Positions 2,693-28,492 of a DNA stretch of 64,000 nucleotides are shown here, one piece after another. The position numbers and the translations under genes were made by a program. Source of the stretch: Candidatus Nealsonbacteria bacterium (GTDB taxonomy: Bacteria; Patescibacteriota; Minisyncoccia; Minisyncoccales; PWPS01). The notes under the pieces were generated by a model, which worked only from the letters and a program-made list of their open reading frames with translations, ran no database searches and was not told where the DNA came from. Position 1 is the stretch's first letter. Each line of letters begins with the position of its first letter. The DNA lies in assembly GCA_003555075.1 (NCBI GenBank), contig PWHW01000002.1, positions 96,210 through 160,209 of the forward strand, read 5' to 3'.

Positions 2693-4666
2693 ATGAATTT
2701 TAAGTTGAAGGCGAATTTTGAGCCGGCGGGAGATCAGCCCAAGGCGATAAAAGAGTTAACAAAAAATGTTAGAGAGGGTCTTGATAAGCAGACCCTTCTT
2801 GGGGTTACAGGGTCTGGAAAGACCTATACCATAGCAAAGGTTATTGAGGAGACGCAAAAACCTGCTTTGGTGATAAGTCACAACAAGACCCTTACCGCTC
2901 AATTGTGCAACGAATTCAGACACTTTTTTCCGAATAATTCCGTGCACTATTTTGTCTCTTATTATGACTATTATCAGCCGGAAGCTTACATAAAACAAAC
3001 AGATACTTATATAAGAAAAGAAGCTCTTATCAATGAAGAGATAGATAAGCTTCGTCATGCTGCGACAACAGCTCTTCTAACAAGAAACGATGTGATCATT
3101 GTAGCCTCTGTGTCATGTATATATGACCTGGGGCTTCCTTCTGTTTATGAAAAGAATATTTTTAGAATCAAAAAAGGGGAAGAAAGGACGAGAAGAGAGA
3201 TTATCGAATCTTTGGTAAAAATGCATCTTACCAGAACTCCTTCTGTACTTGAAAGGGGGAGGTTCCGTGTTCAAGGCGACGTATTGCAAATAGCACCGGT
3301 GAATGAGGATATCATTTATCGCGTAGAGCTTTCAGGAGATAGAATTGAGAAGATTTTCGCAATGGATCCCGTAGAGGGTTTTATTCCCGGAGTAACTCCG
3401 GAAACTGAAGAGATCGTGCTTTCCCCCGTAAGACATTTTCTTTCCGAGGAAAGAGGAACGGAGGAGGCTATAAAAAAAATAGAAGAAGAGCTGAAAGAAC
3501 GAATTGCTTACTTTGAAAAGAGAGATATGCCTCTGGAGGCTGAAAGAATAGAGCAGATAACAAGAAATGATATAGCCAGACTAAGGGAGATGGGATATTG
3601 TCATGGAATAGAGAATTATTCTCGCCATCTTTCGGGAAGAGGGGCGGGAGAGTCACCTTCCTCTCTTCTTGATTATTTCAGAGAAGATTTTTTAACGGTA
3701 ATAGACGAATCGCACATTACCATTCCGCAGATCGGGGCTATGTATTACGGTAACAAATCCAGAAAGGAAGCGCTTATCAAGCATGGTTTTCGCCTTCCTT
3801 CGGCAATTGACAACAGGCCTCTTACTTTTCAAGAGTTTGAGGAGAGGGTAAAGCAGGCGATATATGTTTCTGCTACTCCTGCAGAATACGAGAGAGTAAA
3901 TAGCAAGAAGGTTGTAGAGCAGATCATAAGACCTACCGGACTTGTGGATCCCAAGGTTACAATCGCTCCCTGCGAAGGACAGATAAAGGATCTCTTGAGG
4001 AGAATAGATGAAAGGATAGGAAAGAATCAAAGAATACTTGTCACCACTTTAACAAAGAAAATGGCGGAAGATCTAACAGAGTATTTAAAAGAAAGAGATG
4101 TAAAGGTATCTTATATTCATAGTGATATCAAATCTCTTGAAAGAATAAAGATCCTTACTTCTCTAAGAAGAGGAGAGATAGATGTGGTAGTGGGGGTAAA
4201 CCTTTTAAGGGAAGGATTGGATCTTCCGGAGGTTTCTTTGGTAGCTATTTTGGATGCCGACAAAGAAGGTTTTTTGCGCAGCGAGACAGCTTTAATTCAA
4301 ACCATCGGAAGAGCTGCCCGAAACATAGAAGGGGAGGTCTTGGTCTATGCGGATGAGATCACGGGCTCCATAAAGCGTGCGCTGGAAGAAACAGAAAGAA
4401 GGAGAAAGTTACAGATAGATCATAACAAGAAGCACAATATTACTCCTCGGACAATAGAGAAAGAAATAGATGATATTGTTCCCACCAAGGAGGTGCTTGA
4501 GATAGAAACCAAGCCTCTTCCCGAGACCAAGGATGCCATGAAGAAGTTCATCAAAGAAAAGGAGGCGGAGATGAAGAAAGCGGCGAAGGATCTCAATTTT
4601 GAACTTGCAGCTATTTTACGGGATGAAGTAAAAGAATTAAAAAAGGAAATGGATAAGAAAAAATAA
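2693..4666 (+). CDS. uvrB: excinuclease ABC subunit B
   Basis: 657 aa with Walker A 'GVTGSGKT', helicase motifs and a C-terminal UVR coiled-coil ('[16 protein letters not shown]'). Confidence 0.95.
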
Positions 4667-4670
4667 ACGT

Positions 4671-7169
4671 ATGAAGGAAAAAATCTCCATAAAAGGGGCC
4701 AGAGAGCACAACCTAAAAGGGGTGAATGTGGATATACCTCGCAACAAGATGACCGTGTTCACAGGTATTTCCGGTTCGGGAAAGTCATCTCTTGCATTCG
4801 ATACCATATTTTCCGAAGGGCAGAGAAGATACGTGGAGTCATTATCATCTTATGCCAGGCAATTTCTAAGCAAGACAGACAAGCCCGATGTAGACGAGAT
4901 AGAAGGACTTTCTCCTGCTATTTCCATAGATCAAAAGGCCAAATCACACAATCCTCGTTCCACGGTAGCTACCGTAACGGAGGTTTATGATTTCTTGAGA
5001 GTTCTCTTTGCAAGAGTAGGCAAGTCTCATTGCCCAAAGTGCGGAGAAGAGATAAGTTCTCTTGGCGTGGATCAAATAGTAGATCTTATTTTTGACCTCA
5101 AAGAGAAGGAATGTGTGACTGTTCTTTCACCCGTAGTCAGGGGTAGAAAAGGGGAATATTATCAGCTTTTGTATGATCTTTTGAATGACGGATTCAGAAA
5201 AGTACGTATAGATGGAAACTTTTATTCATTAAGAGAAAGAATAGTTATGCCCCGGTACGAAAGACATGATATTTCAGTGGTGGTTGATGAGGTTCCAATG
5301 AATACTTCGGAAAAAGAAGTGAGAATGAGGCTTACTGAAGCAGTGGAGACTGCACTGAACAAGGGTAACGGATTCTTGGAAGTGATCTATGGACAAGGGG
5401 AAAAGCAGTTCTCGGAAAAACTTTCTTGTCCAAAGGATAACTTTTCCTACCCGGAGATAGAACCTCGAATTTTTTCTTTTAATAGTCCTTATGGAGCTTG
5501 CCCCGATTGTAATGGACTTGGAAAAGAAGAGATGTTCTCTGAAAAGCCATGTAATACTTGTAAAGGAAAAAGGCTTCGTGAAGAAGCTTTGCACGTCTTG
5601 ATCGATGGAAAAAGCATAAATGACGTAGTAGAAATGTCCGTCCTGGAAAGTTCCAAGTTCTTTAATGACCTTCAAGGAAAGCTCGATGAGTACGAATCGG
5701 AAGTAGCCGAAGCTCCCTTGAGAGAGATAAGGGATAGAGTGGGTTTTTTGGTAGACATAGGTCTTGACTATCTTACTCTGGGAAGAGCCTCTCACACTCT
5801 TTCCGGAGGAGAAGCTCAGAGAATAAAATTGGCCTCTCAGGTGGGACTTAGGCTTGTAGGAACTCTTTATATTCTTGATGAACCGACGATAGGACTTCAC
5901 CAGGAAGATAACGAACGTCTTGTGAATACTCTCCAGAACCTTCGTGATCTTGGGAATACAATAATTGTGGTAGAGCATGATGAAAAGACCATTTTTTCTT
6001 CGGATTTTTTGGTTGATTTTGGCCCGGGAGCGGGAGTGAACGGAGGCAATATAGTGGCTTCCGGAGAAGTTCCTGATATCATGGAGGATAAATCCCAGAA
6101 CTCGCTCACTCTCCAATATTTACGAGGAGAAAAAGAGATTCCTCTCCCTGATAAGTGGAGGAAAATAAAACCCTCTACTCCTTTTTTAAAGATCAGAGGG
6201 GCCAAGGAAAACAATTTAAAAAATATCAACGTGGATATTCCTTTATCCCGGTTTGTTACGATCACGGGTGTTTCCGGGTCTGGTAAGAGCACTTTGGTGC
6301 ATGATGTTCTCTATAAACACTTGGCTAAAAAAATGAATAGATCAAAATTGGAAGCAGGGGAGTGTAATGCGATCATGGGAACCGAATATGTTGATAAGGT
6401 AATAAACATAAATCAATCTCCCATAGGAAAGACTCCTCGCTCCACCCCGGTTACTTATGTCGGCGCTTTTACAGACATTAGAGAGCTTTTTTCTTACAAT
6501 GAAGAAGCTAAAGTTCGAGGATGGAAGCCCGGAAGATTCAGTTTCAACGTGCCGGGGGGACGTTGCGAGAATTGTAACGGATATGGGTATATTCCCGTGG
6601 AAATGCATTTTCTTCCCACTATTTTTATTACTTGCCAGGTGTGCAAAGGAAAAAGATTTAACAGAGAAACTTTGGAAATAAAGTATCGAGGAAAAAGTAT
6701 ATTCGATGTTCTGAAAATGACGGTGGATGAAGCTCTGGAATTCTTTGAGGATACTCCCTGGATAGAGAAAAAGCTACGTATATTACAGGAGGTGGGGCTT
6801 GGTTATCTTTCATTGGGACAGTCTGCCACCACTCTTTCGGGAGGTGAGGCTCAAAGAGTAAAACTTTCCGCGGAGCTTGCTAAACCCGATACTCGCAATA
6901 CGGTATATATTTTGGACGAACCAACGGTCGGACTTCATTACGAGGATGTGAGAAAACTTATTGATGTACTACAGTTTCTTGTAAATAGGGGGAATACGAT
7001 CATTGTAATTGAGCATCATCTGGATGTAATAAAAAGCTCCGATTATGTCATAGATCTTGGTCCGAAAGGAGGGGAGCAAGGGGGGGAGGTAGTGACCTGC
7101 GGAGATCCTAAAAAAATATCGCGAAAAGCAAGTAGTTTTACGGGAAAACATCTTCGCAAGATTTTGTAG
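4671..7169 (+). CDS. uvrA: excinuclease ABC subunit A (compact, 832 aa)
   Basis: Two ABC ATPase modules ('GISGSGKSS' and 'GVSGSGKST'), two 'LSGGEAQR' signature motifs, and Zn-finger cysteines ([21 protein letters not shown]). It starts 5 nt after the uvrB stop. Confidence 0.93.
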
Positions 7170-7440: not shown

Positions 7441-8640
7441 GTGAACCCTTCTTCTTCTTTTTCCATGAAGAAAGAAGAGATAAAAAATATTCCGGAAAAT
7501 CCCGGGGTCTATATTTTCAAAAATGTAAAAGGAGAAGTGATCTATGTGGGAAAAGCGGCCAATTTGAGGCGACGCGCTAGCAGTTATTTTTCAGGAAGAA
7601 ATATAAAAGACAGCAGGATAGCGGAGGAGGCGCGAGATATTGAGTACGAGGAGACAGAAACAGTGATAGAAGCTCTTATAAGGGAAGCTGAGCTTATAAA
7701 GAAATACAGACCCTCTTATAATATAAAAGAAAACGATGACAGGAGCTTCCTTCATGTGGTGATAACCGATGAAAATTATCCGAGGGTTTTGCTCACAAGA
7801 GGTAAGGATCTTGAAAATTACAAGAAAAGAAGTGTTTTTGGGCCTTTTGTGTATTCTTCTGAAATAAGAAATGCTTTAAAGATAATAAGAAGAATATTTC
7901 CTTATTCTACTCATACCGAGAAAGAAATAGGGAAAGGAAGGGGTTGCTTCTATCATCAAATAAATCTTTGTCCGGGAGTATGTGCGGGAAAGATGAGTAG
8001 AAGCGAATATCTCAAGAATATTAGGAATATAGAACTTTTTTTGAAGGGAAAAAGGAAGGAAATAATATCAAGACTTACAAAGAGAATGAAAGAAGCGAGT
8101 AAAAAAATGGAATATGAAAAAGCAGAGGAATTCAAAAGAAAGATCGATGCCCTCTCTTACATACAAGAAACCGCTCTTTTGAGTAAAAAGGAAAAAGGCG
8201 ATGGTGTTCTTAGGATAGAGGGTTATGATGTGTCAAATATATCGGGAGATCTTTCCGTGGGATCCATGGTGGTATTCAAAGGAGGAGAACCTTCAAAAAG
8301 TGATTACAGGTTGTTCAATATAAGAAGTGTACGAGGACCGAATGATATCGATATGATAAAAGAAATTCTAAGAAGAAGAGTTGAGAATAATTGGCCGCTT
8401 CCTTCTGTTATTGTTGTTGATGGAGGGGAAGGTCAGGTGAATGGAACCAAAGAGGTTCTCGGGGAAAAGGGGCTCGATATTCCGGTGGTAGGCATCGCAA
8501 AGGGTGTAGATAGGAAAGGGGAGCGAATGGTCGGGGATAGTGTGAAGGTGGAAAAGGACATTTTAATAAAAGTTCAAAGAGAAGCTCATCGGTTTGCCTT
8601 AAGTCATCATAGGAGAACCAGGAAAAAGAACTTCCTATAA
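7441..8640 (+). CDS. uvrC: excinuclease ABC subunit C, compact form lacking the C-terminal (HhH)2 domain
   Basis: GIY-YIG motif 'GVYIF...VIYVGKAANLRRRASSYF', a UVR-like helix 'YEKAEEFKRKIDAL', and the UvrC endonuclease region 'EGYDVSNISGD...VDGGEGQVN'. The ORF-track start is GTG at 7441; an ATG at 7465 fits the usual N-terminal length better. Confidence 0.85.
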   Translation: MNPSSSFSMKKEEIKNIPENPGVYIFKNVKGEVIYVGKAANLRRRASSYFSGRNIKDSRIAEEARDIEYEETETVIEALIREAELIKKYRPSYNIKENDDRSFLHVVITDENYPRVLLTRGKDLENYKKRSVFGPFVYSSEIRNALKIIRRIFPYSTHTEKEIGKGRGCFYHQINLCPGVCAGKMSRSEYLKNIRNIELFLKGKRKEIISRLTKRMKEASKKMEYEKAEEFKRKIDALSYIQETALLSKKEKGDGVLRIEGYDVSNISGDLSVGSMVVFKGGEPSKSDYRLFNIRSVRGPNDIDMIKEILRRRVENNWPLPSVIVVDGGEGQVNGTKEVLGEKGLDIPVVGIAKGVDRKGERMVGDSVKVEKDILIKVQREAHRFALSHHRRTRKKNFL

Positions 8641-8703
8641 AGAGACATTTGTTATAATATATCTATGGCAGCTTGGTAAAAATTAATTATTACTTTATTT
8701 ACT

Positions 8704-9249
8704 ATGAAGGAAGAAAAGTTCAATGGAATAACCGTGAAACGTATTGTAGTGGGATCCTTGGAAACCAACTGTTATCTTGTATTTTCTGACGATGAAATGG
8801 TGGTGGTGGATCCGGGAGGAGATTCCAAGAAAATAATCGATGAAATAAAGAATTCCAAGATCGTTCCCAATATTATTATCAATACCCACCATCATCCTGA
8901 TCATGTTTCTGCAAATGAAAAAGTAAAGGATGCTACAGGTGCGGAAATATTTGAAGGATTGAGAGAGGGTTATGAGATAAATTTGGGAAATAACAAACTG
9001 AAAGTTATGGAAACTCCCGGTCACACAAAGGACAGTATTTCTTTGCTTGGCGAAGGTTTCCTTATAAGCGGCGATGTTCTTTTTTCGGAAGGGCATGGAA
9101 GAACGGATCTTCCCGGGGGATCGGGAGAGGAGATGACCAAGACACTGAATAGATTAAGAAGGGAGATACCGGATGAAGTAACGATCTATCCCGGGCACGG
9201 AGAACCCTTTAAAATGAAGGAAGGAAAGAAGGTTTGTTTCTTGATGTAA
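8704..9249 (+). CDS. MBL-fold metallo-hydrolase
   Basis: 'INTHHHPDHVSAN' (HxHxDH), downstream His/Asp ligands 'PGHT', 'SGDVLF' and 'YPGHG'. 181 aa. Confidence 0.8.
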   Translation: MKEEKFNGITVKRIVVGSLETNCYLVFSDDEMVVVDPGGDSKKIIDEIKNSKIVPNIIINTHHHPDHVSANEKVKDATGAEIFEGLREGYEINLGNNKLKVMETPGHTKDSISLLGEGFLISGDVLFSEGHGRTDLPGGSGEEMTKTLNRLRREIPDEVTIYPGHGEPFKMKEGKKVCFLM

Positions 9250-18689: not shown

Positions 18690-20546
18690 TTAGATCTCAA
18701 TCAAATATACCTCCTTTTGCGTAAGGAGGTATATTTTTTTACCTCCTCGAGAAACAGCTATATCCACTACATCATCTTTTTCATAGATAATCTGACTGAT
18801 CGTTTCTCCTTTTTTACCTATTAGTACTATTCTGTTTTCCTGAGGGTCATGAATCACCAAAGGGGTTTCCGAATCGGTGTATAATTTTCTTCCGTCCTTA
18901 AGGGGAGGAAATATCAAAGGATTGATAGTTTCCTTTTTTTCTCCTCTGTAATAATGATATATATCACTCTTGGAGGTCAGTGCAAATATTGATCCGTCTA
19001 TGGCAATAGATATCGCTTTTGACATTTTATCCTCACCTTTCTTTATCCATGGCTGAGGTCTTTCTTCGGGGTAGTGCATGATCTCTCCCTTAGTATTCAA
19101 GAAATAGGGGATTCCCATGAAAGAAGATAATGATATGAAATTGTTATGATCCTCGGGAAGAGTTATTATCCTTTCTGAGAAATGACCGTTCTCAAAGAAG
19201 ATGAGATGATCTGGAGAAGAAAAAAAGATGGCTCTTTCTCCGGAGAAAGAGGAAAGGTCTATTCCTTTCTCTATTGGTAAAGAATAAGATGTTATTTCCC
19301 CGTTTTCCGGCTCTAGAATGACTACTTTAGATTCTTGGGAAGAGTAGAGAAAAAGGTTTTCGCCTCCAGCCATTATTTTTTCAGGATTCATATCTTCGAT
19401 TTTTCCCAATAGTTGCACATCAGATCTTACTTCGGTTTCTGAGAGAAGAAGTAGCTCTTCCTCCATTTTATTAAGTAGGATCTCTGCTTCTTCTTTCAGA
19501 ATGGTTTTATTCTTGAACTCGTTAAGCTCTGAGAATAGTTCTTTAAGAGAAGCCATGTCTTCCTTTTCTTTCTTTTGCAGCATTTTTTCCTCCATGGAAA
19601 TTATTTTCTTTTGATCTTTGTCTGCCCTTACTTTTCTTTCGATACCGATTATCGTACTTCCCATTATTATGATAACTACCAATATTAGCGGAAGATAAAC
19701 AGACTTCTCTCTAAAAGGTATTCTTTTTATTCTATCGGGAAGTTTCATGTTTTTTATCCCGGAAAAATTCAATTTACTGAAAATGTTCTTTACATAAGAG
19801 ATGTTCTCTTTGGCCATTTTCTTGAAAGAGAATCTTTCTTTCGGTGCACCAGAAAAGAACTTTCTTTTACTGTCTTTTGGGGAGCCGGAAAAACTCATTA
19901 TCAGTGCCACTCCCGAGACATCTGGAAATTTTTCTTTTTGAAGAGAAGATATCCGCTCCATTGTATCATTTCCCAACAATCCCTTTTTTATCTCTTCAAG
20001 TATCTTTTCTTTATGAAAGAAATCATATATTTCGGGAGTTGCTATAACCAATTTCTCGTTCTTGGAGATCTTCCCGGAAATGAGGTTCTGAAAAGAATCG
20101 GAATGTGAATTATTTAGTTCTTTGCCAATATCTTCTATTTTGTTATTACTTAACAAAAGAATCTTCATTTCACCGATCCTTGAGAAATGTATATCAAAGC
20201 TCTTTGAGCAGAGAAGTGCTATGTTGCCCTTTTTTCCTTTTTTTGACTTTTTTATGAATTCGTTGACTTCCAACAAAGCTTTCTTTAAGGAGTGCTCCGG
20301 GCGAGAAGAGTTCTCATAATAGGAATCTTTTGCAATTTCGAATAATTCTTGCAGGAAAGGGGTTTCTTTTTCGTAAATCTCTCCGGCCATATAAAGTCTT
20401 CCTTTTTTGGCCCTATGAGGATCTTTTGGTTTATATTGAAAAGTTTTGCAAACTTTTCCTTTTTTTTCGGGATTGAATTGTAGCTCGTAGATCTTCATTG
20501 ATTTCATTATAATGTTTTTCAATAAATAGACAATTTTATTCTTCAA
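18690..20546 (-). CDS. hypothetical membrane protein (N-terminal cytoplasmic domain, single TM, coiled-coil, C-terminal beta-rich domain)
   Basis: 618-aa ORF with TM 'VYLPLILVVIIIMGSTIIGI' and a K/E-rich coiled coil. No recognisable catalytic motifs. Confidence 0.5.
   Translation of the reverse strand: MKNKIVYLLKNIIMKSMKIYELQFNPEKKGKVCKTFQYKPKDPHRAKKGRLYMAGEIYEKETPFLQELFEIAKDSYYENSSRPEHSLKKALLEVNEFIKKSKKGKKGNIALLCSKSFDIHFSRIGEMKILLLSNNKIEDIGKELNNSHSDSFQNLISGKISKNEKLVIATPEIYDFFHKEKILEEIKKGLLGNDTMERISSLQKEKFPDVSGVALIMSFSGSPKDSKRKFFSGAPKERFSFKKMAKENISYVKNIFSKLNFSGIKNMKLPDRIKRIPFREKSVYLPLILVVIIIMGSTIIGIERKVRADKDQKKIISMEEKMLQKKEKEDMASLKELFSELNEFKNKTILKEEAEILLNKMEEELLLLSETEVRSDVQLLGKIEDMNPEKIMAGGENLFLYSSQESKVVILEPENGEITSYSLPIEKGIDLSSFSGERAIFFSSPDHLIFFENGHFSERIITLPEDHNNFISLSSFMGIPYFLNTKGEIMHYPEERPQPWIKKGEDKMSKAISIAIDGSIFALTSKSDIYHYYRGEKKETINPLIFPPLKDGRKLYTDSETPLVIHDPQENRIVLIGKKGETISQIIYEKDDVVDIAVSRGGKKIYLLTQKEVYLIEI
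18704..18735. terminator. bidirectional terminator hairpin
   Basis: ATACCTCCTT-TTGCGT-AAGGAGGTAT followed by T7. It overlaps the last codons of the convergent gene. Confidence 0.5.
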
Positions 20547-20573: not shown

Positions 20574-20647
20574 GGGCGCATAGCTCAGCTGGTTAGAGCG
20601 CTGTCTTCACATGGCAGAGGTCTCTGGTTCGAGTCCAGATGCGCCCA
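20574..20647 (+). tRNA. tRNA-Val (CAC)
   Basis: Acceptor GGGCGCA/TGCGCCC, D-arm TAGCTCAGCTGGTTAGAGC, anticodon stem CTGTC/GGCAG with loop TTCACAT, T-arm TCTGG-TTCGAGT-CCAGA. Confidence 0.75.
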
Positions 20648-20700
20648 CTTTTGCTTCTATTAAAGACCTTTCTTTATTCATAAAAATAGTGAGTTTTATT

Positions 20701-20979
20701 ATGGATACCAAAAAGAGGGTTAACATTTTGATCTCTGGGAAGGTTCAGGGTGTGTTCTTCAGAGATAGCACTCGTAAGATCGCAATTTCCTTGGGAATTA
20801 CGGGTTATGCAAAAAATTTATCGGATGGGAGAGTAGAAGTAGTTGCCGAAGGAGGGGAGAATGAGCTAAAAAAGCTTGTTTCATGGGTAAAAAAAGGACC
20901 TCCTCTTTGCAGAGTGGATAATGTAACTTTAAAGAAGGAAAAGTATAAAGGGGATTTTGATGATTTTAATGTGATATAG
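20701..20979 (+). CDS. acyP: acylphosphatase
   Basis: 92 aa 'ISGKVQGVFFRDSTRKIA...GYAKNLSDGRVEVVAEG' (acylphosphatase signatures). Trimmed from the ORF-track ORF that overlaps tRNA-Val. Confidence 0.8.
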   Translation: MDTKKRVNILISGKVQGVFFRDSTRKIAISLGITGYAKNLSDGRVEVVAEGGENELKKLVSWVKKGPPLCRVDNVTLKKEKYKGDFDDFNVI

Positions 20980-20989
20980 AAGATGTTCC

Positions 20990-21018
20990 TTGACAAGAGG
21001 TAATGGTACGCTATAATG
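20990..21018 (+). promoter_or_regulatory. consensus sigma70 promoter for the hsp20 gene
   Basis: TTGACA-N17-TATAAT. Confidence 0.6.
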
Positions 21019-21021
21019 AAG

Positions 21022-21049
21022 CTAGCACTCTTTTGCTAAAAGTGCTAAA
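21022..21049 (+). promoter_or_regulatory. CIRCE-like inverted repeat (HrcA operator-like)
   Basis: cTAGCACTC-ttttgctaa-AAGTGCTAA, compared with the CIRCE consensus TTAGCACTC-N9-GAGTGCTAA (one mismatch per arm). It lies immediately downstream of the -10 box. Confidence 0.6.
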
Positions 21050-21095
21050 AAGAAGAACTTTAAAAGGTCGGATATAAACCAAGTCAAAAAGGCTT

Positions 21096-21524
21096 ATGAA
21101 TATCATACCAAGAAAACCCTTTGGGGAGTTAGACGAATTCTTTCGAGATGATGATTGGTTTTTTCCGATTTTTAGGAAAGGAATGTTTGAACCTGACATG
21201 GATGTTTATGAAACGGAGAATGAGGTAGTAGCGGAAGTGAATGTTCCTGATATCAATCCTGACAATATTAATGTTTCCGTTGATGGAAACGTTTTGAAGA
21301 TAAGTGGAGAGTTTGAAGACAAAAAAGAAGAGGGAGAGAAGGAAAAGAGTTACTGGAAAAAGGAAATTCGCAAAGGTTCCTTCAGTAGAGCGGTAAGATT
21401 ACCTTCAGAGGTTGATGAGAACAAGTCGGAAGCTGCTTACGAAAATGGTATCTTGAAAGTGACACTTCCTAAAACAGAAGAAAAAGAAAGAAAAGGAAAA
21501 GAGATCAAGGTAAAGAAGAAATAA
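21096..21524 (+). CDS. Hsp20/alpha-crystallin family small heat-shock protein
   Basis: 'DVYETENEVVAEVNVPDINPDNINVSVDGNVLKISGE...AYENGILKVTLPK' alpha-crystallin domain. Confidence 0.85.
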   Translation: MNIIPRKPFGELDEFFRDDDWFFPIFRKGMFEPDMDVYETENEVVAEVNVPDINPDNINVSVDGNVLKISGEFEDKKEEGEKEKSYWKKEIRKGSFSRAVRLPSEVDENKSEAAYENGILKVTLPKTEEKERKGKEIKVKKK

Positions 21525-21543
21525 AAAGATCCCAGATAAACCA

Positions 21544-21572
21544 AAACCCCGCTTAAAAAGCGGGGTTTTTTG
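21544..21572. terminator. bidirectional rho-independent terminator
   Basis: AAAACCCCGC-TTAAAAA-GCGGGGTTTTTT between convergent genes. Confidence 0.7.
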
Positions 21573-21592
21573 TATTTCAACTTTTCTCTTAA

Positions 21593-21826
21593 TTATTCTT
21601 CTTCCTCTTCTTTACCTTCTTCCTCTTCTTCTTCGAGGTCGAGATCGTCATCATCGAGGTCAAGGTCGTCTTCAAGATCACCGAGATCCAGATCATCATC
21701 ATCTAGATCACCGAGATCATCATCCTCGAATTCATCATCCTCGAATTCATCATGATCTTCTTCTTCATCTTCGTTTATTGTTGCAAGAAAGGGTTGTTTA
21801 AATTCAATTCGTTCAGTTACAAACAT
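21593..21826 (-). CDS. small polyacidic protein with DL-x-DL repeats (77 aa)
   Basis: A strong RBS AAGGAGGG lies 8 nt upstream of the ATG. The protein is 'MFVTERIEFKQPFLATINEDEEEDHDEFEDDEFEDDDLGDLDDDDLDLGDLEDDLDLDDDDLDLEEEEEEGKEEEEE'. Confidence 0.55.
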   Translation of the reverse strand: MFVTERIEFKQPFLATINEDEEEDHDEFEDDEFEDDDLGDLDDDDLDLGDLEDDLDLDDDDLDLEEEEEEGKEEEEE

Positions 21827-21997
21827 ATTTTTTTATTCCCTCCTTTTTTGAAAGGAGAAAATGGTTATTTACTCGTCACACCCCCCTGGAGTGTACCGAC
21901 CTTTTTTGCTAGAGTCATTATAGTGTTAGATGTATCGTTGTCAAGAATAAAAAAAGTGTATTTTATTTTTTGATTTTTTCTATTATAATCCACTAAT

Positions 21998-22396
21998 ATG
22001 TGGGAAATAACGGAGAAAAGAAATGTTCTTATTTCGTGGTTTGTGTGGCACTATGATGTTGCTTTAGAGGAGATGGTGTCGATGTGGAAGAATTTGCTTG
22101 TTTTTAACATGAATTATTTTTCCATACGCTTTCTACTGAGAACTCTTTTTGCCCCCTGGAAAAAATATACTTTCTCTTACGGAAGGGGTTTTGACGCGGG
22201 AAGGTTTCTCGATACCCTTGTCTTCAATGTGTTTTCGAGACTAATAGGCTTTATAATACGTACATTGATAATTATTATTGGATTGATAGCGCAAGTCATG
22301 ATATTCGTTTTGGGAATTTTGATAATGATGGCTTGGATATTGATACCTTTATTAATAATAGCGGGAATAATCGTTTCTCTAAAATGGTTAATTTGA
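21998..22396 (+). CDS. hypothetical membrane protein
   Basis: 132-aa ORF with a strongly hydrophobic C-terminal half ('IIIIGLIAQVMIFVLGILIMMAWILIPLLIIAGIIVSL'). No SD sequence is evident. Confidence 0.35.
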   Translation: MWEITEKRNVLISWFVWHYDVALEEMVSMWKNLLVFNMNYFSIRFLLRTLFAPWKKYTFSYGRGFDAGRFLDTLVFNVFSRLIGFIIRTLIIIIGLIAQVMIFVLGILIMMAWILIPLLIIAGIIVSLKWLI

Positions 22397-24885
22397 ATAT
22401 AAAGAATGCTGCCATAAATAGAGCACTTCTCCTCAATAAAATACCGATCTTCCGATTTGCGGGGTCGCTCATGGATCTCTTTCTTGTACTTTCTGTACTC
22501 TTTGTTCTTTTAGAGCACTTCAGTGGAAGATTGTATGTAATGGACTTTCCTTTTCTGGGATATGGAATCTTGTCCTTTGTTTTATTCTTATTTTTTCTGG
22601 AGATGGAGCTTTTCTTTAAGCACACAAAGAGCCCCAAGCTTTTCATGGGCATGAAAGATATAAAAGAGGATGACCTGAAAGAGGTTAATCTTGCTGAGTT
22701 TTTGGATTTTGAAAGCGCAAAGATCATTAAAAGAGCAGGAAAGATAGGCGGTGCGGATTCCTATCTTTTGCTTTTTCATATACTTCGATATTCTCGTGAA
22801 ATGGACTTCGTATTTTACAGATCCTTAATTGACAAGGAAAGGATGGCTTCCGAGCTGGAAAATGTCTTTAAGAAAAGAGAAAGGGTCCGAGAGGAATACC
22901 TCGAATCTTTCTTTGAAGTAATGAAAGAAGCTTTTCTGGTGGCCAAAGAAAGAGGCAATGAAAGGATAACATTGGAAGATATTTTTGTTGCTCTTGGCGA
23001 GCATAATAGTTATCTTCAAGGAGTGTTCTACGAGGAAGGGCTCAAGAGGAAGGATTTGATGGAATTGACTTCTTGGCAATTAAGATTGAAAAGTAAAGAC
23101 CATCCTTTTACTCACGATAGTCTTGTAAAAAAAGGAAAACTTGGAATAGAGTGGGCTTCCGGACACACTCCTCTTCTTGATAAGTTTTCTGTCGACTGGA
23201 CCAAAAAAATGAAGATCGCCGGCTTTCCGGAGACCATAGGGCATAAAGAGGAGATAGAGGCACTAGAAAGAGTTCTTTCAAGAGGTGAAGCTAATAATCC
23301 GTTGCTTGTAGGCGAACCCGGATCGGGAAGAAAGAGTATAATTCAGGATGTCATAAGAAGGAGTTATTCGGGAGAAAGTCTTTCTCAGGTTAATTTTAAG
23401 AGGTTTTTAGAGCTTGATCTTTCTTCTTTGGTGTCTCATGCGGAAGGGGTTGAGGAAACAGAGTCTCTTTTGGATAGTGTTTTCAGTGAAGCGGAAAATG
23501 CGGGCAATGTCGTTTTGATAATAAACGATATTGATAATTTCATGAGTGGAGAGCAAAGACCGGGGATTGTTGATATTTCCGGTGTTTTGAATTCTTATCT
23601 GCATCTTCCCTCCTTTGCGCTCATAGGAGTAACTAGCTATGAAGGATTTCACAATAATATTGAGAAGAATCCAATATCCTCTTTAATGGAGAAAGTGGAA
23701 GTAGGTAGGGTGAACAAAGAAGAAACCTTGTGGTTGCTTGAAAGAAGAGCCTTGGCACTTGAAAGAAAGTATCATAAGCTGATCCCTTTTTGCTCTTTAA
23801 AGAAAATAATCTCTCTTTCGGATCGTTACATTCAGGACCATCCCTTTCCAGAGAAAGCAGTGGATTTATTGGAAGAGGCGATGGTGCATATAGAACAGCA
23901 AAAGGTCAAAATTCTTCTGCCAAAACATATTGAGAGGTTGGTGTCCGAGAAAACCGAAATACCGGTGGGAGAGATAGACGAAAAAGAAAGGGAGATCCTT
24001 TTAAACATGGAAAGGCTTTTACACGAAAGGATAGTTGATCAGGAGCAGGCTGTCAGTGCTGTCTCAAAAGCTCTTCGTCGCTCGCGTGCACAAGTTGATA
24101 CGAGAAAAGCCCTTATTGGAAGCTTTTTATTTCTTGGTCCGACCGGTACCGGAAAAACTGAAATGGCAAAAGCAATAACCGATGTTTATTTTGGGTCGAA
24201 AGACAGGATGATACGCCTTGATATGTCCGAATTCCAAACTGTACGTGACCTGGGAAGACTCATAGGTTCCCCGGGAAAAGAGGGTGTGCTTACCTTGAAG
24301 GTCAAAGAGGACCCCTTTTCGCTCCTTCTTTTTGATGAAATAGAGAAAGCTCACCCAGATATTCTAAACTTGTTCTTGCAATTACTTGATGAAGGGCATA
24401 TCACAGATGGAATGGGCAAGAAAGTGGATTTTCGTAACACAATGGTGATTGCTACCAGTAATGCGGGTTATCAGACTATCTTGGATGCTATAGAAAAAAA
24501 TGAGAACTGGAGTGACTTGAAGAAAAGAATATTAAGGAGACTTTTTAAAGAATCAACATTTAGGCCGGAATTTGTGAACAGATTTGACGAAGTGGTTCTT
24601 TTCAAGCCTTTAAGCAAAGAGGAATTATTTATGGTGGCCGGAATGCAGCTTGAGGATCTAAGAAAAGGGTTGAAAGAGAAAGAAATTGACCTCCAGATCA
24701 CTGAAGAGTTAAAGAGGAGAGTCGTAGAGATGAGCTATGATCCCGTATTTGGCGCCAGAGAGATGCAAAGGGTCATTCAAGACAATATAGGAGATGCCTT
24801 GTCATCGGTTATACTAAAAAAGGAAGTAAAAGAAGGAGACTCCCTTACCATAGATCCGAAAGATTTTTCTGTGAAAAAAATGTAG
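22384..24885 (+). CDS. Clp/Hsp100-family AAA+ ATPase with a membrane-spanning N-terminus and a degenerate first ATPase module
   Basis: Two N-terminal hydrophobic helices. Two Clp_N-like repeats ('ESAKIIKRAGKIGGADSYLLLFHIL' and 'ITLEDIFVALGEHNSYLQG'). D1 is atypical: P-loop 'GEPGSGRKS' and Walker B 'IINDIDNF'. D2 is canonical: 'GPTGTGKTEMAKAI', 'LLLFDEIEKAH', 'ATSNAG'. The start between 22333 and 22384 is uncertain. Confidence 0.7.
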   Translation: MVNLNIKNAAINRALLLNKIPIFRFAGSLMDLFLVLSVLFVLLEHFSGRLYVMDFPFLGYGILSFVLFLFFLEMELFFKHTKSPKLFMGMKDIKEDDLKEVNLAEFLDFESAKIIKRAGKIGGADSYLLLFHILRYSREMDFVFYRSLIDKERMASELENVFKKRERVREEYLESFFEVMKEAFLVAKERGNERITLEDIFVALGEHNSYLQGVFYEEGLKRKDLMELTSWQLRLKSKDHPFTHDSLVKKGKLGIEWASGHTPLLDKFSVDWTKKMKIAGFPETIGHKEEIEALERVLSRGEANNPLLVGEPGSGRKSIIQDVIRRSYSGESLSQVNFKRFLELDLSSLVSHAEGVEETESLLDSVFSEAENAGNVVLIINDIDNFMSGEQRPGIVDISGVLNSYLHLPSFALIGVTSYEGFHNNIEKNPISSLMEKVEVGRVNKEETLWLLERRALALERKYHKLIPFCSLKKIISLSDRYIQDHPFPEKAVDLLEEAMVHIEQQKVKILLPKHIERLVSEKTEIPVGEIDEKEREILLNMERLLHERIVDQEQAVSAVSKALRRSRAQVDTRKALIGSFLFLGPTGTGKTEMAKAITDVYFGSKDRMIRLDMSEFQTVRDLGRLIGSPGKEGVLTLKVKEDPFSLLLFDEIEKAHPDILNLFLQLLDEGHITDGMGKKVDFRNTMVIATSNAGYQTILDAIEKNENWSDLKKRILRRLFKESTFRPEFVNRFDEVVLFKPLSKEELFMVAGMQLEDLRKGLKEKEIDLQITEELKRRVVEMSYDPVFGAREMQRVIQDNIGDALSSVILKKEVKEGDSLTIDPKDFSVKKM

Positions 24886-24920
24886 CAGGGGAGAAGTCGC
24901 GATAAAAACACAATCAAACA

Positions 24921-24958
24921 ACCTCCGAAGTGGGACTTCGGAGGTTTTTATTTTTTAA
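24921..24958 (+). terminator. rho-independent terminator
   Basis: ACCTCCGAAG-TGGGA-CTTCGGAGG followed by TTTTTATTTTTT. Confidence 0.7.
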
Positions 24959-24968
24959 AAAATGCCTT

Positions 24969-25048
24969 GTGTGGAATTTGTGGGTTGACAGGGGATTGAT
25001 TGTGGGATAATATGGGGTCACATAGTAAATATGTGGAAAAAAGTGGGG
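24969..25048 (+). promoter_or_regulatory. mraZ promoter region with an array of GTGGG direct repeats (MraZ-box-like)
   Basis: GTGTGG, GTGGG (24980), TTGACA (24985), GTGGG (25002), TGGGG (25013), TGTGG (25032), GTGGGG (25043). The spacings of about 10/11/20/22 nt put the repeats on one helical face. Confidence 0.5.
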
Positions 25049-25095
25049 AAAATACCGGATCTTTGTGGAAAACTCCTCTTTCTTCCTCCTTCTAT

Positions 25096-25527
25096 ATGTT
25101 CATAGGGGAATACACATACAAGATAGATGACAAGAAAAGGCTTGCTATTCCTTCCAAGTTTCGTGATGAATTAAAAAGAAAGGCGGTGATCACGCGCGGT
25201 CTTGATAGATGTCTTTTTCTTTATTCCATGGAAGAGTGGGAGAAGATCGCTGAAAAGATAAGTCAACTCCCTTTTGGCCAACATGACAGTAGGGGGTTTT
25301 CAAGAATAATGCTTTCAGGAGCGATGGAGGTGGAGTTTGATTCGGCGGGAAGGATTCTTATTCCGGATTATTTAAAAGAATATGCTTCTTTGAAAAAAGA
25401 GGTTGTAATTGCAGGTCTGTATAATCGTGTTGAGGTTTGGGATAAGGAAACCTGGAATGATTATAAAGAAAAGACGGAAGAGGAGCTTGGTAATATTGCT
25501 GAAAGACTGAAGGAGTTTGGTGTTTGA
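25096..25527 (+). CDS. mraZ: transcriptional regulator MraZ
   Basis: 143 aa 'MFIGEYTYKIDDKKRLAIPSKFRDEL' with a second half 'MEVEFDSAGRILIPDYLKEYA' (two DXXXR MraZ repeats). Start is ATG 25096. Confidence 0.85.
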   Translation: MFIGEYTYKIDDKKRLAIPSKFRDELKRKAVITRGLDRCLFLYSMEEWEKIAEKISQLPFGQHDSRGFSRIMLSGAMEVEFDSAGRILIPDYLKEYASLKKEVVIAGLYNRVEVWDKETWNDYKEKTEEELGNIAERLKEFGV

Positions 25528-25636
25528 TCAAAAGAGTCAATCTTTAAAAAATAAAAGCAATTTTCAAGACCACGGATCCAGGTTGTCATTATAACGGTTC
25601 TTTACAATTGAATTTTGTGGCTTGAAGTCTTATTCA

Positions 25637-26512
25637 ATGCATATTCCCGTTTTAAAAGAAGAGGTCCTACACTTTTTGAGTCCGCAACCCAATGAAGATT
25701 TTGTTGATTGCACGGCGGGAGAAGGTGGTCATACGGAAGCTATACTGGAAAGGAATGGCCCCTTGGGAAGAGTTTTGGCCATTGAATGGGACCCGGAACT
25801 TTTCAGTGTTTTACTGGAAAAGAGTAAAAAAGAGAAAAGAATTGTTCCCGTAAATGATTCTTATACTTTGATAGAGGAGATAGCTGTAAGAAAAGGATTC
25901 TCTTCCGTGTCAGGAATACTTTTTGATCTGGGTTTTTCAAGTTTTCATGTTGATAGAAGTGGTAGGGGATTTTCATTCATGAGGAAAGAGCCACTGGATA
26001 TGCGCTATAACAAAAATAATCCTCTTACAGCTTATGACATTGTTAATAAATATAAGGAAAAGGATATAGAGTACATTTTAAAAAAATGGGGGGATGAAAA
26101 ATATGCGAAAGAAATAGCTCACAAAATAGTCTTGGAAAGAAGAGAGGATCCTATAGAGACCACTACCAGACTGGCAGAAATCGTAAAGAGGGTTATTCCC
26201 GAAAGACATAAGGAGAACTTAAAAATACATTGTGCCACAAGGACCTTTCAAGCTTTAAGAATTGCGGTAAATGGTGAACTCATGGGGATTGAATCTGCAC
26301 TTCCTGATGCCTTCAAGATATTAAAAAAAGAAGGAAGAATGGTAATTATTTGTTTTCATGAAGGAGAGGAAAGAGTAGTAAAGAAGTTCCTTAGGTCTCA
26401 CAAGAAAAACATAAAATTGCTAACGAAAGACCCCGTGGTTCCCACCATTGCAGAAACAAATAAAAACATTCGTTCAAGGTCGGCCAAATTATATTCTTTA
26501 ATGAAAAAATAA
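25637..26512 (+). CDS. rsmH: 16S rRNA (cytosine1402-N4)-methyltransferase RsmH
   Basis: 'MHIPVLKEEVLHFL...DCTAGEGGHTEAIL...DLGFSSFHVD'. Confidence 0.9.
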   Translation: MHIPVLKEEVLHFLSPQPNEDFVDCTAGEGGHTEAILERNGPLGRVLAIEWDPELFSVLLEKSKKEKRIVPVNDSYTLIEEIAVRKGFSSVSGILFDLGFSSFHVDRSGRGFSFMRKEPLDMRYNKNNPLTAYDIVNKYKEKDIEYILKKWGDEKYAKEIAHKIVLERREDPIETTTRLAEIVKRVIPERHKENLKIHCATRTFQALRIAVNGELMGIESALPDAFKILKKEGRMVIICFHEGEERVVKKFLRSHKKNIKLLTKDPVVPTIAETNKNIRSRSAKLYSLMKK

Positions 26513-26513
26513 G

Positions 26514-26798
26514 ATGAGGAAAATGTTAAAACATTACCATGCTTTTCTAGGAGTTCTTGTTGTTGGGCTTGCATTCTTGTGTGTTTTTCAGATCGTGAAG
26601 ATAACGGAAGAGAAGTATCTTGCACAGGAATATCAAAAGGAATTAAGGGAAGTCTCCAGGATGACCCTTACCATTGAAAATCCCGAAAATAATTTTTCCT
26701 TGAGGGAGGTGGAAGAGATAGCCAAAGAAAACGGATTTGTAAACAAAGGAAATGTAGCTTATGTGGAAGTTCCCAGCACCGAGGTGGCTGAGAGATAA
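26514..26798 (+). CDS. ftsL: cell division protein FtsL-like (small single-TM protein in the dcw position)
   Basis: 94 aa with one TM ('AFLGVLVVGLAFLCVF') and a C-terminal coiled segment, located between rsmH and ftsI. Confidence 0.5.
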   Translation: MRKMLKHYHAFLGVLVVGLAFLCVFQIVKITEEKYLAQEYQKELREVSRMTLTIENPENNFSLREVEEIAKENGFVNKGNVAYVEVPSTEVAER

Positions 26799-26830
26799 TT
26801 TTTACAATAATAAACTAAGCGGGGAGATAA

Positions 26831-28492
26831 ATGTGTGATAAACGTTTATGGTTTGTTTTTCTCATAGTAATTGTTTCTACGGGGTTATTCTGTTGGCGTC
26901 TTTTTAATTTGCAAATTGTTGAGGGAGGAGAATGGAGAGCTCAAGCCCAAGGACAACAAAGAATATTTACTCAGGCGCAAGGAGACAGGGGAAATATCTA
27001 TCTAAATAGCAACGGGGATCCCGTAGTGGCTGCTACTAATAAAAAGGTTTATCATGCATATATTTCTCCACGGAGAATAAAAGAAGAAGAGAAGGAAAGT
27101 TTTGCTTCTTTGTTTGCAGATCTACTGGATGTTGAGAAAGAAGATGTCTTGAAGAGAATGAAAAAAGATAGTGCTTATGAAGTAATAAAAAGAAATTTAA
27201 GCGAAGAAGAGAAGGAGGTGGTAGAAAGAACAGAAGAACTGTATATTCAAGAAGAACTTACTCGTTTCTATCCTGAGAATGACTTTGCTTCTCATGTTCT
27301 TGGTTTTGTGGGAGGCGAAAATAGGGGACAATACGGGGTAGAGCAGTACTATGAAAAAGTATTGCAAGGAAAAGTGGGCATGAGAGAGGGGTTGAAAAAT
27401 CCTTTGGGGACTCTTATTCTCAATGATTCTATTAAAAGAGGGGAGGACCTGTTTTTGACCATTGATTATAATGTACAGCATTTTGTAGAGAGAGAGCTTG
27501 AAGAGAGGGTTGAGCAGTTTGATGCAAGAAGTGGAATGGCGATCGTCATGAACCCGAAGACCGGTGAGGTAATGGCTATGGCAAATTACCCCGAGTTCGA
27601 TCCGAACAAATATAATAAATTTGAAAGCTCTGTATTTAAGAACTCTGCGATGCAGTCCGTGTTTGAACCGGGATCTGTGTTCAAACCGATAACCATGGCC
27701 ATTGCTTTGGATGAAGATGCTGTGAATCCCGAAGATACTTTTCTTGATACGGGAAGTGTGCAAATACACGGACGTACCATTTACAACTATGCCAGGAGAT
27801 CCTATGGGGAAGTGGATATGTCAAGGATCCTTGAGAATTCCATTAATACGGGAATAGTGTATGTGAAGGACAGGGTAGGTAATGAGACCTTTTTGGACTA
27901 TCTTCACGAATTCGGATTTTTTGAACCGACTGGCATAGATCTTCACGGTGAAGTTTACTCCAAAAACAGAAGTTTTCTTGAAGGTCATGAAGTTAATTTT
28001 GCCACTGCGTCTTATGGTCAGGGAATAAATGTTACCGCCGTTCAGCTCATGAGAGCTTTTTCCGCTTTGGCAAACAACGGAGAGATGGTCGATCCTTATG
28101 TGGTACAGAGAGAGGAGTATTATATTCCTTCCGGAGAGCAGGTGATCTCTGCCGAAACAGCTTCTTTGGTAACGGAAATGATGATCAATACCATTGAAGA
28201 TGGTTTTGGGAGTACAGCCAAGGTTCCGGGATACTATATAGCAGGAAAGACGGGTACTGCCCAGATCCCGTGGTCTTCGCTTGGGGTTAGTAGAAGAGGA
28301 TATTCGGATAAGACTATGCAGGGCTTTATAGGATTTGCTCCTGCCCTGGACCCCGAATTCATGATCTATGTGAGCCTTGATGATCCTTGGTCTCGTAGTG
28401 CTGAAGTCTCTGCCGCCCCTTTGTTCAAGGAGATATCGGAATTCCTTTTTGAATACAAGAGGATCCCTCCCGATTACGCCGTTACAGATTAA
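26831..28492 (+). CDS. ftsI: peptidoglycan D,D-transpeptidase FtsI / penicillin-binding protein 2
   Basis: N-terminal TM, transpeptidase motifs 'GSVFKP' (SxxK), 'ENSINTG' (SxN) and 'GKTGTA' (KTG). Confidence 0.9.
   Translation: MCDKRLWFVFLIVIVSTGLFCWRLFNLQIVEGGEWRAQAQGQQRIFTQAQGDRGNIYLNSNGDPVVAATNKKVYHAYISPRRIKEEEKESFASLFADLLDVEKEDVLKRMKKDSAYEVIKRNLSEEEKEVVERTEELYIQEELTRFYPENDFASHVLGFVGGENRGQYGVEQYYEKVLQGKVGMREGLKNPLGTLILNDSIKRGEDLFLTIDYNVQHFVERELEERVEQFDARSGMAIVMNPKTGEVMAMANYPEFDPNKYNKFESSVFKNSAMQSVFEPGSVFKPITMAIALDEDAVNPEDTFLDTGSVQIHGRTIYNYARRSYGEVDMSRILENSINTGIVYVKDRVGNETFLDYLHEFGFFEPTGIDLHGEVYSKNRSFLEGHEVNFATASYGQGINVTAVQLMRAFSALANNGEMVDPYVVQREEYYIPSGEQVISAETASLVTEMMINTIEDGFGSTAKVPGYYIAGKTGTAQIPWSSLGVSRRGYSDKTMQGFIGFAPALDPEFMIYVSLDDPWSRSAEVSAAPLFKEISEFLFEYKRIPPDYAVTD

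Follow-up and report, generated by a model that had tools for sequence, protein, structure and literature searches.

A two-gene module in a Nealsonbacteria contig

The window analyzed here is a stretch of 64,000 nucleotides (nt) from Candidatus Nealsonbacteria bacterium (contig PWHW01000002.1 of assembly GCA_003555075.1, positions 96,210 to 160,209 of the forward strand), and all coordinates below count from its first nucleotide. Two overlapping genes on its plus strand are considered. The upstream one (21998..22396, +) encodes a 132-amino-acid (aa) membrane protein of an unannotated family, recognized by the open reading frame (ORF) call and by relatives that lie beside distant homologues of the second gene. 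The second gene, clp (22384..24885, +, stop codon included), encodes an 833-aa class-I Clp/Hsp100 ATPase anchored in the membrane by transmembrane (TM) helices, as identified by the ORF call, Pfam and NCBIfam, HMMER, an AlphaFold2 model, and Foldseek. The small-protein gene and the ATPase gene (TM-Clp hereafter) form a conserved two-gene module of bacteria of the candidate phyla radiation, and we have high confidence in the anatomy of the ATPase and in its pairing with the small protein as described here.

The small ORF and the start of clp overlap by 13 nt (ATGGTTAATTTGA). An identical 833-aa sequence, encoded on a 209-kb contig, is present in a public protein collection, and both ORFs are called as genes in independent assemblies. 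About 120 full-length homologues have N termini conserved from Met1 (M-x-N-F-x-L-K), which sets the start at ATG 22384 and makes the hydrophobic segment part of the protein. An in-frame TTG at 22333, which would lengthen the product by 17 aa, is an unlikely start since the family N termini begin with M-x-N-F. A start downstream from the hydrophobic segment, for which a previous sequence-only reading of this DNA had allowed and which would remove the TM segment, is excluded by the same full-length homologues.

Two strong terminator-like hairpins on the plus strand, each with a 12-bp stem and a T run, bound the pair: one follows the upstream gene hsp20 (21543..21569), and the other lies 35 nt past the clp stop (24920..24946). 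A promoter-like site for mraZ (24985–25013) is found 3′ of the latter. With these hairpins, and with the promoter-like sites that hsp20 and mraZ have of their own, the pair looks like a separate bicistronic unit. A scan of 21570–21998 gave no sigma-70 promoter for it; the only good −10 hexamer 5′ of the small ORF is TATAAT at 21984–21989, which has no good −35 and ends 8 nt before the ATG, and the mRNA may be leaderless or nearly so. No CIRCE element (controlling inverted repeat of chaperone expression) occurs at the cassette, the only CIRCE-like repeat of the window being upstream of hsp20.

Architecture of the ATPase and its membrane anchor

The ATPase consists of an N-terminal peptide, a TM hairpin, a divergent Clp N-domain, the modules D1 and D2, and a D2-small domain. 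Pfam matches to AAA_2 (4.9e-44) and ClpB_D2-small (3.1e-20), with AAA_lid_9 in D1, give the two tandem AAA+ modules of class-I Clp/Hsp100 proteins. In HMMER comparisons with solved ClpB and ClpC structures, D2 reaches ~270–284 bits and D1 ~91–101 bits, with D2 of Thermus thermophilus ClpB the best-matching part (~284 bits). The AlphaFold2 model (pLDDT 91.3, pTM 0.84) has full-length Foldseek matches to ClpC, ClpB, and ClpC1 (the best being ClpC and ClpC1), with 790–820 columns aligned to full-length ClpC. The top NCBIfam matches are ClpB, ClpA, ClpG, ClpK, and ClpV, and all are well under the curated cut-offs: 448.9 bits versus 1232.1 (TIGR03346) and 390 versus 1417 (PRK10865) for ClpB, 402.7 versus 993 for ClpA (TIGR02639), 337.6 versus 885 for ClpV/TssH, 358.7 versus 1900 for ClpG, and 342.9 versus 1900 for ClpK.

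The N-terminal peptide (aa 1–25; 22384..22458, +) has a net charge of +4, is conserved, and ends in an invariant F-R-F before the first TM helix. The hairpin that follows (22459..22629, +), delineated by hydropathy and by the AlphaFold2 model, has helices at aa 26–50 and 57–82 (Kyte–Doolittle peaks of 2.41 and 1.94), a 6-aa connecting loop of net charge −1, and a K-rich exit. The +4 peptide and the K-rich stretch past helix 2 point to an N-in/C-in topology, in which the peptide and the ATPase would both be cytoplasmic. Among 120 homologues, the set for all family counts unless stated otherwise, 118 have at least one hydrophobic peak within the first 120 aa and 95 have none elsewhere; the position of the TM helices is kept across the ~120 sequences, their sequence is not. 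The two N-terminal helices of the sequence-only reading are thus borne out by hydropathy, model, and family.

Beyond the hairpin lies a highly divergent Clp N-domain (aa ~95–258; 22666..23157, +), identified through matches of the family profile. Pfam Clp_N leaves the window protein unmatched and recognizes only two of 24 family members. A family profile of aa 80–262, on the other hand, matches the solved N-domains of Hsp101, ClpC, ClpA, and ClpV (E = 5e-5 to 1e-3); the match to ClpA covers both repeats, and that to the ClpV N-domain 4hh5 is at E 1.4e-3. The two Clp_N repeats proposed from the sequence alone gain a little ground from this profile and none from the silent Pfam model.

D1, a predicted pseudo-ATPase

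The D1 AAA+ module (aa 262–510; 23167..23913, +) has a conserved fold, degenerate catalytic motifs, and no M-domain inserted in its small subdomain. Its Walker A motif (23311..23337, +) reads GEPGSGRKS, where ClpB and ClpC have GEPGVGKTA: The P-loop Lys is changed to Arg (112/120 homologues) and the Mg-binding Thr to Lys (K or R in 111/120), and the resulting pattern G-[ST]-G-R-[KR]-S is strongly conserved over the 120 sequences. In the Walker B motif VVLIINDIDN (23509..23538, +), N-D stands for D-E (IINDID vs. FIDELH), and the pair drifts in the family between DE, ND, NE, DD, NN, and DN. The HMMER alignments with ClpB and ClpC are ungapped over NNPLLVGEPGSGRKS and VVLIINDIDN, and no other gap placement restores the motifs; the noncanonical P-loop and Walker B first noted are therefore genuine features of D1 and do not arise from misplaced gaps.

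Two further losses had escaped the sequence-only reading. At the pore-loop-1 position (23434..23466, +), the canonical AGAKYRGEFEE is replaced by SHAEGVEETES (KYRGEFEE becoming EGVEETES), without tyrosine, and no aromatic residue is present there in 97/120 homologues. The arginine-finger position (23677..23688, +) reads SSLM instead of the canonical ERRF; it contains no arginine, and the arginine finger of D1 is absent across the family. A D1 loop P-G-x-x-D-I-S-G is strongly conserved. The mean pairwise identity of D1 is 55% while its Walker B pair drifts, which indicates that the fold is kept under selection and catalysis is not. By these motifs, D1 is a predicted pseudo-ATPase, and a membrane-tethered Clp/Hsp100 with an inactive-looking D1, as put forward initially, turns out to be a conserved family trait.

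D2, a predicted motor without a pore loop

The D2 large AAA+ domain (aa 540–740; 24001..24603, +) contains Walker A GPTGTGKTE (24136–24162, +), Walker B LLLFDEIEKAH (24322–24354, +), sensor 1 TSN (24454–24462, +), and the arginine finger NRF with R733 (24577–24585, +); the ClpB_D2-small domain (aa 743–823; 24610..24852, +) adds sensor 2 GAR (24751–24759, +). Walker A, Walker B, sensor 1, R733, and GAR are invariant in 120/120 homologues, and the mean pairwise identity of the large domain is 71%.

The pore loop is different. At the pore-loop-2 position, RLIGSPGKEGVLT (24256..24294, +), the canonical PGYVGY is deleted: ClpB has GAPPGYVGYEEGGQLT where the window protein has GSPGKEGVLT, a loop that lacks 6 aa relative to its ClpB and ClpC counterparts and contains no aromatic residue. 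The length of this segment is fixed in 120/120 homologues and the segment is aromatic-free in 105/120; what is left of the pore-loop residues is acidic (S-x-x-E-E-G). Pore loops free of aromatic residues, in both rings, are also seen in the Saccharibacteria-type distant relatives, where GYVG is missing, and in the fusion proteins described below. Judged by its motifs, D2 is an ATPase that is intact but for its pore loop. The description of D2 as fully canonical holds for the nucleotide site, but not for the shortened loop.

With no aromatic pore-loop residues in either ring, the ATPase is probably not a normal protein-threading unfoldase, and the unfoldase role suggested at first, in membrane-protein quality control or secretion, becomes doubtful since it presumes threading. 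The main rival to the non-threading remodeller proposed below keeps that role: an unfoldase or extractase that would thread membrane proteins in the conventional way for their quality control, similar to FtsH or Msp1 but without a protease, in which the small protein would be a substrate adaptor and non-aromatic loops would act instead of tyrosines. The membrane anchor with its cytoplasmic motor, the intact D2, and the retention of an N-domain able to bind substrates or adaptors would all suit such an enzyme. The loss of both tyrosines, the family-wide shortening of the D2 loop by 6 aa, and the acidic S-x-x-E-E-G remainder do not, and known threading Clp/Hsp100 ATPases need aromatic loops (PMC5425593). 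We regard an extractase of this type as rather unlikely.

Two other parts of related ATPases are missing. The D1 alignment stops at ClpC residue 404 and the D2 alignment resumes at 474, with ~9 aa between them in the query; there is thus no M-domain, consistent with the alignment to ClpA, which runs as one stretch. In the segment between sensor 1 and RPEF (24463..24561, +), which in ClpA and ClpC includes the IGL/VGF loop for ClpP docking, the protein is ClpB-like, with a 7-aa gap opposite ClpC RFAGFGG, and the hydrophobic-Gly-hydrophobic tripeptide is missing in 119/120 homologues. Without this tripeptide, the ATPase would not be a protease partner; with the M-domain missing as well, it would be expected neither to serve ClpP nor to act as a disaggregase coupled to DnaK. 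The docking loop and a clpP gene had both been singled out for checking: The loop is not there, and tblastn found no clpP in the 64-kb window, with an approximate query (E. coli ClpP) and over a part of the genome. Databases name family members "Clp protease ATP-binding subunit," "ClpC," or "AAA family ATPase," and a ClpC- or ClpA-type subunit of ClpP protease is what the first two names imply. Against the absent tripeptide, the gap opposite the ClpC loop, a score of 403 bits where the ClpA cut-off is 993, and the negative clpP search of the window, that assignment is scarcely credible.

The small partner protein

The small hydrophobic ORF, first noticed only for its overlap with clp, is a real and conserved partner gene. 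It precedes the ATPase gene directly, on the same strand, in 78 of the 86 related loci (most of the eight others are too short upstream to judge). Gene ends could be mapped for 75 pairs: in 41 of them the two genes overlap, and in another 28 they lie no more than 30 nt apart (69/75 together). The association persists as the sequences diverge. The small ORF is 37%–58% identical to ORFs directly 5′ of TM-Clp genes that are only ~45% identical to the clp of the window. Relatives at only 27%–29% identity still lie 4 nt 5′ of a TM-Clp of 794 or 814 aa, and these distant ATPases have the TM hairpin, D1 Walker B DN or DD, and no GYVG. A profile search retrieved 1552 representative clusters at 50% identity, nearly all of 115–140 aa. 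The small ORF has no match in Pfam, NCBIfam, or PADLOC.

In the AlphaFold2 model (pLDDT 93.3), the small protein folds into a long hairpin whose helices span aa 3–40 and 67–131. The protein can be divided into a helical hairpin predicted to be cytoplasmic (aa 3–40 and 67–~100), a tip (aa 41–66), and a hydrophobic C-terminal stretch of 41 aa (aa 89–129). The tip holds the most conserved motif, FSxxxLLRTLFAPWKxY...GRGFD. A Foldseek search of the PDB returned nothing significant, the best match being the HlyD helical hairpin (E ~5, TMq 0.45). An ESCRT-III, PspA, or Vipp1 fold was dropped, as none is among the 25 matches listed by Foldseek. The conservation of W14 and W17 in the homologues supports the 132-aa form starting at 21998; in one public annotation (P0121; NCBI, JGI, ENA), the small ORF is given as only 104 aa from a downstream start.

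Natural fusions of the small protein to the ATPase occur in at least two lineages, represented by P0265 (identical in three independent assemblies) and P0296. In both, the hydrophobic stretch of the small protein is followed by one more TM helix and then by the N-domain. Since the ATPase must stay cytoplasmic, the 41-aa stretch would cross the membrane an odd number of times, with the small protein N-in/C-out.

Distribution and genomic neighborhood

The module is present in Parcubacteria and Saccharibacteria. All 80 loci from species-representative genomes belong to Patescibacteria (Nealsonbacteria, Wildermuthbacteria, Staskawiczbacteria, Paceibacterota, and Minisyncoccales among them). Many of the 80 record titles carry a generic "Saccharibacteria" label; the distant branch of locus L087 is genuinely Saccharibacteria (e.g., Candidatus Nanosyncoccus alces). 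We found no description of the family in full-text searches of a literature library, and no curated model covers it; one paper considered as a possible account of the family (PMC10568318) proved not relevant.

Transposon sequencing (Tn-seq) data exist for what appears to be the module in the cultured Saccharibacterium Southlakia epibionticum (PMC10633639, Table S1). There, SEML1_0701, a 127-aa hypothetical protein, overlaps SEML1_0700, an "AAA family ATPase" with AAA_2 at 544–706, D2-small at 713–792, and no Clp_N. Both genes are scored non-essential, non-essential, growth defect (NE, NE, GD), and their read counts drop over passages (PMC10633639). By these calls the pair, apparently orthologous to the module, would not be essential, and its loss would show as a growth defect only late. 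Southlakia also has a canonical ClpC-type protein, SEML1_0512 (two Clp_N repeats and a UVR motif; NE), and ClpP, SEML1_0493 (NE) (PMC10633639). The text of that paper is silent on SEML1_0700 and SEML1_0701.

Upstream of the cassette, hsp20 (21096–21524) is a self-contained heat-shock unit spanning 20990–21569. Its promoter has a perfect sigma-70 consensus (TTGACA-16-TATAAT, 20990–21017), followed by the CIRCE-like inverted repeat CTAGCACTC-N9-AAGTGCTAA (21022–21048), unique in the window, which implies HrcA-type control in this genome. The presence of this gene 470 nt upstream of the cassette, together with ClpB as the best NCBIfam match, could suggest a heat-shock disaggregase (ClpB-, ClpG-, or ClpK-like) working with the neighboring small heat-shock protein. 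However, hsp20 has its own promoter, CIRCE, and terminator while the cassette has no CIRCE, and an Hsp20 neighbor is found in 11 of 86 loci, close relatives only. With the M-domain and the pore tyrosines missing and scores far under the ClpB, ClpG, and ClpK cut-offs, a disaggregase is very improbable.

Between hsp20 and the cassette, the minus strand carries an extremely acidic 77-aa ORF (21593–21826) that contains D and E runs and has no Pfam match. It has a promoter-like site with a perfect TTGACA-16-TATAAT (21944–21917), and an equivalent minus-strand ORF of 77–86 aa is called in loci L001–L003. Further upstream are a 618-aa ORF without a Pfam match (18690–20546, minus strand) and an acylphosphatase gene (20611–20979). 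Loci L001, L004, and L006 likewise have an acylphosphatase gene upstream, together with a minus-strand ORF of 605–657 aa that has no Pfam match and is alike in size and position.

Downstream, the start of the division and cell wall (dcw) cluster occupies 25000–28492 of the window, with mraZ (25000–25527), rsmH (25622–26512), a 94-aa ORF of the size of FtsL (26514–26798), and a penicillin-binding protein transpeptidase (26831–28492). This gene order is kept in most related Parcubacteria loci, and mraZ follows on the same strand in 65 of 86 loci, so that in Parcubacteria the cassette sits just 5′ of the dcw cluster. In two loci, the small ORF and clp are separated by a gene for a type IV pilin-like protein (L004, 4127–4996; L075, ~3977–4800); this protein has a FTLIELL prepilin N terminus, and Pfam finds N_methyl and Laminin_G_3 in the L004 copy. 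In at least 19 of 86 loci (including L005, at 7570–9066, L058, L033, L053, L056, and L082), a single-pass membrane protein of 330–500 aa without a Pfam domain is encoded directly 3′ of TM-Clp. It is absent from the window and may be a third component in those lineages.

These neighborhoods hint, weakly, at an envelope or division client. The client could then be a specific machinery (the divisome, peptidoglycan synthesis, or type IV pilins), a proposal that concerns the target and is compatible with the mechanism favored below. In its favor are mraZ and dcw downstream in 65/86 loci, the Southlakia pair adjoining murT and near murB (PMC10633639 data), the pilin-like insertions, and the single-pass protein after clp. 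In the window, on the other hand, the terminator and the separate mraZ promoter split the units; the Saccharibacteria-type loci L087 and L088 have other neighbors; the pilin insertion is limited to two of 86 loci; and, in small genomes, gene order can be inherited without a functional link. A dedicated envelope or division client is, on balance, unlikely.

Comparison with known systems

The window pair shows the traits that characterize the module: the TM hairpin, the degenerate D1, D2 without GYVG, and the small-ORF gene upstream (or fused). Compared with other class-I proteins, it lacks the aromatic pore-loop Tyr in D1 and D2 and a competent D1 (GRKS in Walker A, ND in Walker B, SSLM for ERRF). 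The similarity to ClpB/Hsp104 lies in the two AAA+ modules with an N-domain, the absence of a ClpP-docking loop, and D2, its closest part (~284 bits). The differences are the missing M-domain, the dead D1 expected from its motifs, the absence of a pore-loop tyrosine from either ring, the N-terminal TM hairpin, and the small membrane partner. With ClpA and ClpC, it shares length and domain order (with ClpA, also the lack of an M-domain), and ClpC and ClpC1 are the best Foldseek matches, but it has neither the IGL/VGF loop nor the pore tyrosines, D1 is degenerate, and the protein is membrane-anchored. ClpV/TssH is likewise a ClpP-independent Hsp100, plausibly with one client bound through the N-domain, and the N-domain profile meets 4hh5; ClpV, however, is a soluble protein whose two rings are both active and retain the pore tyrosines. 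Against its model, the window protein scores 338 bits (cut-off 885), and no type VI secretion system genes are found nearby.

Among more distant systems, one tier without hydrolysis is conserved also in NSF and PEX1/PEX6, where the inactive ring (D2 of NSF, D1 of PEX1/PEX6) is kept, presumably for assembly, and the other tier works. Those proteins are of another AAA+ clade and do thread substrates, through an active ring with aromatic pore loops. In FtsH, Msp1/ATAD1, and Bcs1, as here, an N-terminal TM anchor puts the AAA+ ring at the membrane surface. All have a single AAA+ module and none has a Clp N-domain or D2-small; FtsH carries a protease, and Msp1 and FtsH have aromatic pore loops, while Bcs1 works without classical threading loops.

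The Torsins, Clp/Hsp100-related membrane-associated ATPases with TM cofactors, have no aromatic pore loops and are thought not to thread (PMC5425593). Torsin with LAP1 or LULL1, of the eukaryotic endoplasmic reticulum and nuclear envelope, is the nearest functional analogue and resembles the present pair in its non-aromatic pore loops, N-terminal hydrophobic segment, TM partner, and probable non-threading action (PMC5425593). Torsins have a single module and lack an arginine finger of their own, which is supplied by the AAA-like cofactor, whereas the window protein has two modules and its D2 keeps R733. The partner here is modeled as a 132-aa helical hairpin without an AAA fold, and the analogy is functional only, with no evidence of common descent.

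Anti-phage ClpB-like ATPases were also considered and ruled out. The PADLOC models of Dodola DolB (positions 102–277 of 375, E 1.5e-30) and PDC-M37B (E 6.5e-28) give only local matches to the D2 core, attributable to shared ClpB-D2 ancestry and not to membership in a defense system. The small ORF has no PADLOC match, and the locus is a syntenic housekeeping region.

A proposed mechanism

We propose that the two proteins would form one membrane-bound complex, with the ATPase ring held at the cytoplasmic face by the TM hairpins. D1 would be a non-hydrolyzing tier, assembly-related, structural, or regulatory, that may still bind nucleotide via its G-R-K-S loop, and D2 would be the sole motor. The complex would work alone, without ClpP or DnaK, as suggested by the missing docking loop and M-domain. 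With both pore-loop tyrosines gone, processive threading of a polypeptide is most likely not its activity; instead, conformational changes powered by D2 would serve to remodel, pull on, or release a client associated with the membrane. An obligate role as adaptor or transmission element is proposed for the small protein because the conserved tip of its hairpin is predicted to point from the membrane toward the ATPase. Taken as a whole, we give this explanation an even chance of being right; the non-threading mechanism in itself is put forward more tentatively.

Several points weigh against this proposal. The mechanism is derived from sequence and from models of monomers. The loss of the tyrosines argues against canonical threading, but the chain could be gripped in an unusual manner, for example by the D1 loop P-G-x-x-D-I-S-G. 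The conserved G-[ST]-G-R-[KR]-S P-loop implies that D1 is under selection for something, and ~40% of the close homologues keep D-E in Walker B, so that D1 may not be equally inert throughout the family. Adjacency and fusion show a functional link with the small protein, not a role as adaptor or transmission element. SEML1_0700/0701 are taken as orthologues from their annotation, their Pfam coordinates, and the arrangement of the two genes.

A bolder version of the non-threading remodeller can be considered, in which the hairpin of the small protein would stay permanently in or against a widened, tyrosine-less channel. ATP hydrolysis in D2 would drive this hairpin, or else the ring of TM helices, in a piston- or gate-like manner; the complex would work on the membrane or envelope, or would pass a folded client, instead of threading an unfolded chain, and would do so universally in Patescibacteria. 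This is a speculation that we consider decidedly improbable.

Implications

Clp/Hsp100 proteins are textbook ring ATPases that unfold proteins gripped by pore-loop tyrosines. The TM-Clp branch has given up these tyrosines in both rings, silenced one ring, and gained a membrane anchor and a small membrane partner. Even so, it has been kept throughout a very large bacterial radiation whose genomes are tiny, and a gene that persists in such genomes is unlikely to be dispensable. To call members of this family "Clp protease ATP-binding subunit" or "ClpC," as databases do, is misleading. The Saccharibacteria that seem to carry the module are culturable and genetically tractable (PMC10633639).

Should the piston- or gate-like version be true, the complex would work by a mechanism new to Hsp100 machines, with a logic that in bacteria would correspond to that of Torsin and its cofactors or of Bcs1. 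If the non-threading remodeller is correct, it would widen the mechanistic range of bacterial Hsp100 proteins, offer a prokaryotic model for Torsin-type ATPases, and give a partner and a context to ~1,500 clusters of "hypothetical" membrane proteins.

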